Shown here one piece after another: positions 25,228-25,665 of a stretch of DNA of 64,000 nt. The stretch lies in the NCBI RefSeq assembly GCF_055900595.2, contig NZ_CM148325.1; one strand, written 5' to 3'. Numbering within the stretch: position 1 is the stretch's first letter; each line of letters opens with the position of its first letter. The notes under the pieces were generated by a model, which saw only the letters and a program-made list of their open reading frames with translations, ran no database searches and was not told the origin of the DNA. The translations under genes were made by a program, and so were the position numbers.

Positions 25228-25665
25228 ATGGTAAACAACTTCATATTTCTCCATTGCCTCTCACGAAAGGAACTGGACACACTGATCGAGCACGAATTAC
25301 AACTGATGCTGGCTGAAGGCTTTGACAAGTCCCCTATTTCCGCCAAGGCCCTGCATATTCGGCTCAAGGCAAAAGGTATCGTTAACGGTGGTTTAAGTAC
25401 GCTGAGCAGCCTTGAGCGAAAACGCCTAATTGCTGCCTATGTTGATCAGCAACTTGGCCCGTTGAATCTACGCCCAAAAGAAAAACAGCAATACGTCAAC
25501 CGCAAAACCCGTCAGGCCTTGCTGGCCAGAAACCAGCAGTTGCAGGCGGAAGTCAGTGAACTGCAAGACCAACTGGCGCAGAATACCCTATCGTTGATAG
25601 AAATTGTCAAAGCGGTAAAAATCAATACGGTTATTCCGGTGGAAAGTCTGTTGCCAAACATGTAA
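25228..25665 (+). CDS. Hypothetical protein, predicted coiled-coil C-terminus; no family recognised
   Basis: 145-aa ORF just downstream of hipA; no obvious RBS at the annotated start, so the start is uncertain; C-terminal heptad-like Q/L-rich region (ARNQQLQAEVSELQDQLAQNTLSLIEIV). Confidence 0.35.
   Translation: MVNNFIFLHCLSRKELDTLIEHELQLMLAEGFDKSPISAKALHIRLKAKGIVNGGLSTLSSLERKRLIAAYVDQQLGPLNLRPKEKQQYVNRKTRQALLARNQQLQAEVSELQDQLAQNTLSLIEIVKAVKINTVIPVESLLPNM

Follow-up and report, generated by a model that had tools for sequence, protein, structure and literature searches.

GInts, short for Genomic Islands with three Integrases (Tn6571 family), carry a ginABCD operon at their 5' end (Bardaji et al. 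2017, PMC5385486). Of the products, GinA and GinB belong to the tyrosine recombinases. GinC, frequently annotated as hypothetical, is recombinase-like but has an incomplete catalytic motif, and GinD is a small protein without a recognised domain (PMC5385486). In these islands the cargo begins at the ginD stop codon and a short, AT-rich sequence forms the 3' end; the flanks carry imperfect direct repeats (10-17 nt) (PMC5385486). All four gin genes are indispensable for excision and integration in Pseudomonas, the need for ginD in excision as a circle and in integration having been established only with pGInt0 and the element of P. stutzeri DSM 4166 (PMC5385486). The targets described in 2017 were ABC-transporter, ssb and nrd, with ssb reported as the target of six GInts (PMC5385486). 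According to Idola et al. (2023, PMC10214605), 7.5% of Escherichia replicons contain GInts, and the highest frequencies are those of Pectobacterium (39.5%) and Aeromonas (12.5%). The parts of Hochhauser et al. (2023, PMC10121019) that deal with E. coli integration hotspots record GInts ('Tn6571-family') as defence-carrying elements and give hipA-ydeT as hotspot #20, occupied in 62 of 783 genomes.

Comparable small proteins are known from two other groups of elements. In Tn554 (Staphylococcus), the gene of the accessory protein TnpC follows those of two tyrosine recombinases, and efficient, oriented site-specific transposition depends on it; its sequence is reported to be weakly similar to that of GinD (PMC5385486), and its predicted secondary structure to be similar (PMC10214605). 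Unlike GInts, Tn554 has no GinC-like third protein and is found in Firmicutes. Srap of SEs, likewise small and encoded by a fourth gene, assists recombination and has a C-terminus that forms a coiled coil and an N-terminus that is weakly TetR/HTH-like (2023, PMC10214605), but the SE gene order is intA-tfp-intB-srap. Published networks split Srap from GinD and Tfp from GinC, and SEs are rare in Escherichia (0.3% of replicons versus 7.5% for GInts) (PMC10214605).

The window analysed here is a stretch of 64,000 nucleotides of E. coli DNA (NCBI RefSeq assembly GCF_055900595.2, contig NZ_CM148325.1). Its ORF listing contains a 145-codon frame, ATG to TAA, at 25228-25665 on the plus strand, separated by 113 nt from the stop codon of hipA (23736-25115). 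The ORF as called, a chimeric and truncated pseudogene of 145 aa, is very probably a decayed ginD, the last gene of a GInt island that has lost ginABC; the homology, the synteny, the att sites, both lesions and the purifying selection on intact copies that bear on this reading were observed directly and are described below. Searches of Pfam, NCBIfam, PHROGs and PADLOC returned no significant family for the ORF, and nothing significant was obtained from the same domain libraries for the intact 144-aa homologue, which gave sub-threshold coiled-coil-type noise only (DUF2935, HALZ, FtsB). The bases 5' of the ATG (TTAAATAGCCTACG) contain no Shine-Dalgarno motif. No sigma-70-like site was found by a promoter scan of the plus strand 5' of the ORF, no intrinsic terminator was predicted after hipA, and no RNA family was detected with Rfam over 24900-26500. 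The C-terminal part is predicted to form a single long helix (residues 83-121 of the intact homologue, approximately residues 93-131 of the ORF). The initial annotation had also recognised no family and seen no clear ribosome-binding site, and had described the ORF as ending in a coiled-coil-like segment and as convergent with an Xre-like pseudogene. These descriptions stand, the convergent partner being an MbcA/ParS/Xre C-domain ORF and a broken HTH ORF, both on the minus strand. Two of the origins that it had considered, part of an accessory insert and a remnant, are both borne out, in that the ORF is part of a GInt mobile island and the copy is 5'-truncated, 3'-frameshifted and without its partner genes.

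Two details of ORF calling around the locus were also noted. The presence of a gene on the opposite strand of the ORF was rejected, since the minus-strand ORFs there comprise only 49-52 aa and the homologous loci inspected have none called or annotated. The longest hipA ORF in the window (23736-25115) has 459 aa and uses an upstream in-frame ATG that overlaps hipB. Annotated HipA of related genomes has 440 aa and starts at the hipB stop codon; the 459-aa form is a detail of ORF calling and no real extension.

The ORF is no mere chance frame. Its residues 14-142 share 98.4% protein identity with a family conserved across Enterobacterales, Aeromonas and Acinetobacter, whereas its first 13 and last 3 codons are non-native coding sequence. 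The homologous DNA was the fourth gene of an operon in five of five inspected loci (L003, L004, L012, L013 and L015), and this operon lies directly 3' of hipA in L004, L012, L013 and L015. It encodes, in this order, a site-specific integrase of 466 aa, a site-specific integrase of 516 aa, a hypothetical protein of 788 aa and a hypothetical protein of 144 aa, in reading frames that overlap or abut. The first two proteins match Pfam Phage_integrase (E=3e-5 and 8e-10), and the third gives a faint integrase-fold signal only (Pfam E=0.24; PHROG integrase E=0.0012). All five loci thus display the GInt order, with integrase domains in GinA and GinB, a large GinC in third place and a small fourth gene, and at a distant locus (L008) a homologue again follows an integrase, an integrase and a 665-aa protein. 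Whichever cargo the examined intact elements carry, their ginD is coupled translationally to ginC. The 98% protein identity to the fourth operon gene begins at nt 25267-25269 of the window. The ORF is not an independent gene but a remnant of ginD.

The assignment of the operon to GInts was examined by comparison with Pseudomonas elements. A P. aeruginosa plasmid element at the end of the ssb gene (L010) was taken as a GInt by its architecture and ssb target. E. coli GinA, GinB and GinC match the L010 proteins in the same order (BLASTP E=4e-14, 2e-19 and 3e-13), with values within the limits used for GInt homology by others (BLASTP E<0.1 in PMC5385486; at least one integrase with E<1e-5 and the same organisation in Hochhauser et al.). 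For GinD, a profile of the 144-aa family of E. coli, Aeromonas and Acinetobacter was aligned to the small ORF that follows the three-integrase genes of a P. aeruginosa megaplasmid (L009, single sequence), which gave an hhalign E-value of 3.8e-6. The L009 protein is one of a large Pseudomonas family with 131 aa; in P. congelans, for example, the gene of a member comes after int417, int506 and the gene of a 704-aa protein. Comparison of the E. coli GinD profile with the profile of these Pseudomonas fourth genes yielded a probability of 99.2% (hhalign E=1.8e-19, 123 columns), so that homology to fourth genes of Pseudomonas three-integrase operons is seen at the profile level; the two families share only ~28% identity. 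The E. coli profile showed no similarity to GinD of the more distant ssb-type P. aeruginosa GInt. The genera that dominate the list of homologues are the GInt-rich genera of Idola et al. (PMC10214605), and the E. coli protein accessions of interest are absent from the supplements of that SE/GInt survey.

The island architecture agrees with this assignment. The start of ginA lies ~150-200 nt from attL in L004, L012 and L015, and homology between islands with differing cargo stops at the ginD TAA (25691), which places the operon at the 5' end and the beginning of the cargo at the ginD stop codon. Like GinD of described GInts, the E. coli protein is encoded by the last of four genes, the others specifying two tyrosine recombinases and a large recombinase-fold protein, falls in the range of ~130-150 aa, has no recognised domain and ends in a coiled coil or long helix; cargo again follows right at the stop codon, and imperfect direct repeats of 10-17 nt surround the island.

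Other multi-recombinase classes (SE/Srap, Tn554/TnpC, RIT and the NCBIfam 'gamma-mobile-trio') share tyrosine recombinases with the operon, SE and Tn554 also encode a small coiled-coil accessory protein, and GinB faintly matches GmtY (E=0.036). An origin of the ORF as a Srap- or TnpC-type gene of such an element is nevertheless highly improbable. In SEs the order is integrase, recombinase-fold protein, integrase, small protein, whereas here the large non-catalytic protein is third rather than second; on this gene order, and with Srap and Tfp forming separate clusters in the literature, SE membership was rejected. Tn554-type membership was rejected on the presence of the 788-aa third, recombinase-fold protein in all intact homologous operons, for which Tn554 has no counterpart. 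RIT recombinases have 315-410 aa, are all catalytic and are not accompanied by a fourth gene (PMC10214605), the GmtY score is 13 bits against a cut-off of 340, and the Pseudomonas GInt that targets ssb has counterparts of GinA, GinB and GinC in the same order.

The boundaries of the GInt island were determined from the chromosomal flank and from occupied and empty sites. The 120-nt stretch after hipA (25100-25219) is present in >4,800 of 5,426 complete E. coli genomes, and the flank common to these genomes extends up to 25219-25220. Its last bases, at 25208-25219 on the plus strand, form the attL core ATTATGTTAAAT, and the island starts at 25220. The K-12-type empty site reads ...ATTATGTTAAAT/CATGTCTGAG (slash, insertion point), or in a longer form ...GTATATTATGTTAAAT/CATGTCTGAGTG... 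In strain NT1N28 (L012), which carries an intact GInt, attL reads ...ATTATGTTAAAT/ and attR ...CATAAGTTAAAT/CATGTCTGAG, with the longer form ...CAACATAAGTTAAAT/CATGTCTGAG. Strain 2018-18.25PC is another with an intact GInt at the hipA site. The islands are therefore flanked by the imperfect 12-nt direct repeats ATTATGTTAAAT and CATAAGTTAAAT, and related strains retain the empty site, as is typical of GInt insertion. The attB at the hipA site lies ~100 nt 3' of hipA, a target that differs from those described in 2017 (ABC-transporter, ssb, nrd). The exact attB, attL and attR sequences given here for the hipA-site GInt would permit excision and integration assays in E. coli. In the K-12-type strain 8A (L011 6100-6130; compare L012 19270-19300), the unoccupied attB reads ...ATTATGTTAAAT/CATGTCTGAGTG... 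and is located directly 5' of the yneL HTH pseudogene.

Inside the boundary, the window retains 49 nt of the GInt left end (AGCCTACGATGGTAAACAACTTCATATTTCTCCATTGCCTCTCACGAAA; 25220-25268, plus strand). The same sequence is present in strain ETEC1738 (L015 9001-9049), where it sits ~150 nt 5' of ginA. The left ends carry the repeats TGTTAACTTACTTCATGAAC and GGTAAACAACTTCAT.

Two lesions distinguish the window copy from intact ginD. The first is a deletion whose junction, with a microhomology of 2 nt (AA), was placed at 25267-25269 (plus strand) by comparing the window with both the left end and the ginC/ginD junction of L015. The junction sequence ...GCGCGGCAA/GGAACTGGAC... joins the left end to ginD codon 4. 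The missing ~4-5 kb comprise ginA, ginB, ginC and ginD codons 1-3, and the AGGAG ribosome-binding site, which lies inside the 3' end of ginC, was removed together with the ginD start codon. A tblastn search for GinA, GinB and GinC in the whole 64-kb window found none of them. The ATG of the ORF (25228) and its codons 1-13 (MVNNFIFLHCLSR) are noncoding left-end DNA that is in frame by chance. DNA alignments assign 25269-25691 (plus strand) to ginD, corresponding to codons 4-144 of the intact gene.

The second lesion is a 1-nt deletion, in which one G of CTGTTGGCC is missing after 25653 and the frame is shifted. The native tail ...LLAKHVIRELHKSS is changed to ...LLPNM, so that the last 12 residues are replaced by 3, and the native TAA stop codon is kept out of frame at 25689-25691. 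In agreement with this, tblastn split GinD between two frames, with residues 4-132 aligned to 25267-25653 and residues 132-144 to 25650-25688. The identical locus in two strains carries the PGAP label 'hypothetical protein, frameshifted' (pseudogene). Unlike GinD of described GInts, the window copy is accordingly a pseudogene without ginABC, with 13 fortuitous codons in place of the first three native ones and with the conserved C-terminal tail lost by frameshift. No intact translatable gene was found in the window, and the copy is a remnant of a GinD-family member, not a functional member.

The initial annotation had proposed that a lack of conservation in related genomes, together with a lack of expression evidence, would mark the ORF as spurious, and had named dN/dS across strains as a further check. 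The intact gene proved to be widely conserved, and its copies are under purifying selection, with dN/dS values of 0.04-0.08. The L004 ginD is 74% identical in DNA and 83% identical in protein; these dN/dS values, together with protein identity above DNA identity, mark the intact gene as a real, constrained coding sequence. The ORF DNA from nt 40 on is found in ~220 of 5,426 complete E. coli genomes (74-99% identity), the full 25100-25800 stretch in only 17 of them. Among public contigs, the exact 145-aa product occurs in 295 and the intact form in >1,000. Compared with its nearest intact relative, the remnant shows 3 synonymous and 2 nonsynonymous changes, too small a number for an informative dN/dS. 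The two remnant lineages differ at two ORF sites only, both nonsynonymous, and at one of them a family-invariant Met is changed to Ile in the sister remnant. Such nonsynonymous-only differences between remnants are consistent with a pseudogene, although they do not prove it.

The remnant persists in complete genomes from varied hosts (at least 17-21) and in 295 contigs, which might suggest that truncated GinD is still made, for example by read-through from hipBA, and acts in trans. It could then keep incoming GInts from integrating at, or excising from, the hipA att site, as an exclusion or dominant-negative factor, or serve as a domesticated DNA-binding regulator. The frame is open for 145 codons, residues 14-142 keep the N-terminal domain and the long helix, and there is no predicted intrinsic terminator after hipA. 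Still, this is very unlikely, given that the ORF has neither a Shine-Dalgarno sequence nor its native start codon, that the family-conserved C-terminus (...LLAxHLIRELxK) is lost, that all intra-remnant changes are nonsynonymous and include the Met-to-Ile change in the sister lineage, and that no GinA, GinB or GinC partners are present in the window; persistence is also consistent with clonal inheritance (99-100% identity). A more specific version, in which low-level translation from hipBA read-through would yield a GinD fragment that binds the retained GInt end and att sequences and, as an immunity or stabilising factor, blocks recombination by incoming GInts and thereby fixes the tandem island at the hipA hotspot, is a shade less credible still. 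The remnant most likely does nothing, because its partners, its native start and its ribosome-binding site are gone, and we infer that it is not expressed.

The initial annotation had further considered the position next to a toxin-antitoxin locus as a reason to look for a defence or addiction-related role. That suggestion is not upheld, since >4,800 genomes have hipA without the ORF, the synteny of the gene is with ginC, and PADLOC gave no match. In its general form, the proposal would make the ORF an accessory part or regulator of the neighbouring hipBA, of the Xre/MbcA-like antitoxin or of defence genes. The ORF does adjoin hipA and converges with an MbcA/ParS/Xre-type antitoxin fragment, and GInts, both here and at other hotspots, often carry defence cargo (type I R-M, ABC-three-component). 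However, in the loci inspected the intact gene directly follows ginC while the cargo behind it varies, no toxin gene adjoins the MbcA-like fragment, and a role of this kind is extremely unlikely. Membership in toxin-antitoxin or anti-phage defence systems was rejected, as no model in PADLOC, Pfam or NCBIfam matched the ORF and there is no obligatory co-occurrence. The adjacency to hipA is explained by the choice of integration site, with att just 3' of hipA, and not by function. A false lead that tied the ORF to hipBA or defence is thereby removed; the gain lies mainly in annotation.

With the ORF read as decayed ginD, the DNA between hipA and the fimbrial operon resolves into two tandem gin-less GInt remnants, 25220-28666 and 28667-~31887, neither of which contains an integrase gene. 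Remnant 1 (25220-28666) comprises the ginD pseudogene, an MbcA/Xre-type module and a leucine-rich-repeat (LRR) protein, and both of its ends are intact. The module, located 3' of ginD on the minus strand (25804-26580), consists of an ORF with an MbcA/ParS/Xre C-domain (25807-26001, 64 aa; Pfam PF09722, E=1e-10) and a neighbouring frameshifted gene with HTH matches (26059-26307). The 25804-26580 region is 81-89% identical in DNA to the sequence 3' of ginD in L003 and L004, even where ginD is only 74% identical, and both module genes are intact in L015 (13563-14073). No RES/MbcT-type toxin gene was found beside the module, which may be the island's own regulator rather than a toxin-antitoxin antitoxin. 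The remaining cargo of remnant 1 is a gene for a 508-aa LRR protein (26951-28477, minus strand; Pfam LRR_4, E=5e-16). Its length varies among otherwise near-identical strains (460, 508 and 568 aa), with differing numbers of repeats. The repeats are of the LPxLPxxL type and have ~20 residues.

The two remnants meet at an internal hybrid att site, CATAAGTTAAAT (28655-28666, plus strand), which is an exact match to the L012 attR motif. It is followed by a second GInt left end, CATATTGACTGTTAACTTACTTCATGAAC... (28667-28702, plus strand), 89% identical to the L004 left end (2570-2615). The 20-mer TGTTAACTTACTTCATGAAC found here has no second copy in the window, against a chance expectation of 0.03 matches. 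Remnant 2 (28667-31887) contains a truncated HTH gene (28721-28867, minus strand), a gene for an ankyrin-repeat protein (29170-31143, plus strand) and fragments of IS481 and a hydrolase gene. Its left end directly abuts the truncated copy of the HTH gene that is normally found beyond ginD. A deletion has removed its right end together with the K-12-type yneL flank, and core DNA common to K-12 and EPEC resumes at 31888. The chromosomal flank L011 6120-6588 is absent from the window, which indicates that chromosomal DNA was lost along with the right end. The arrangement looks as though GInts integrated one after another at an att site that was regenerated, with deletions afterwards. The ankyrin-repeat protein has 657 aa, and its gene is shortened in strain 2013C-4282. 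PADLOC gave no match for the LRR or the ankyrin-repeat protein; both appear to resemble eukaryote-like or effector-like repeat proteins.

A history of the island and a function of intact GinD can be proposed from these comparisons. A GInt inserted site-specifically at attB (...ATTATGTTAAAT), ~100 nt 3' of hipA. Of the proteins of intact elements, GinA and GinB have the catalytic motifs of tyrosine recombinases, GinC is large and has the recombinase fold but lacks these motifs, and GinD (144 aa) is the accessory factor that both excision and integration are reported to need. For intact GinD, the prediction is a helical N-terminal domain that is weakly HTH-like and a C-terminus that forms a long coiled-coil-type helix. 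GinD may bind the element ends and/or organise the GinABC synaptic complex, as TnpC does for Tn554. A DNA-binding and/or scaffold role that aids the assembly of GinABC on the element ends is the best-supported mechanism, because ginD is genetically required for recombination (PMC5385486), a C-terminal coiled coil occurs in both GinD and Srap and a weakly TetR-like N-terminus in Srap (PMC10214605), and the literature reports a likeness to TnpC. Subsequently, a microhomology-mediated deletion of ~4-5 kb took ginABC, the ginD start codon and its Shine-Dalgarno sequence and so placed ginD codon 4 in frame behind 49 nt of left-end DNA. The C-terminus was truncated later, by the deletion of 1 nt, and without the recombination module the island and its cargo became immobile.

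Both the element family and the E. coli hotspot are already known, and the finding is a real but ordinary mobile-element remnant. Its use is that a recurrent E. coli 'hypothetical protein' can be labelled as a GinD-family recombination accessory protein or as its pseudogene, and that the DNA from hipA to the ydeQRST-type fimbrial operon becomes readable as two tandem immobilised GInt remnants with LRR and ankyrin-repeat cargo.

Related elements were seen in other genomes. An EPEC E2348/69 derivative (L002 7600-13500) contains an independently decayed GInt at the same site, of which an integrase fragment, the ginC tail and only the first ~130 nt of ginD are left, and which carries a reverse-transcriptase-domain gene, an AAA ATPase and an ABC-three-component system as cargo. 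In ETEC1738 (L015), related ABC-three-component cargo is found behind a partly deleted ginAB. On a metagenomic contig (L005 1397-7525), a distant GinD homologue (P0262) is preceded not by three separate integrase-like genes but by a single called gene (2,042 aa) and another of 111 aa, with a BrxR/WYL regulator upstream. This arrangement may be a gene-calling fusion or a different architecture.
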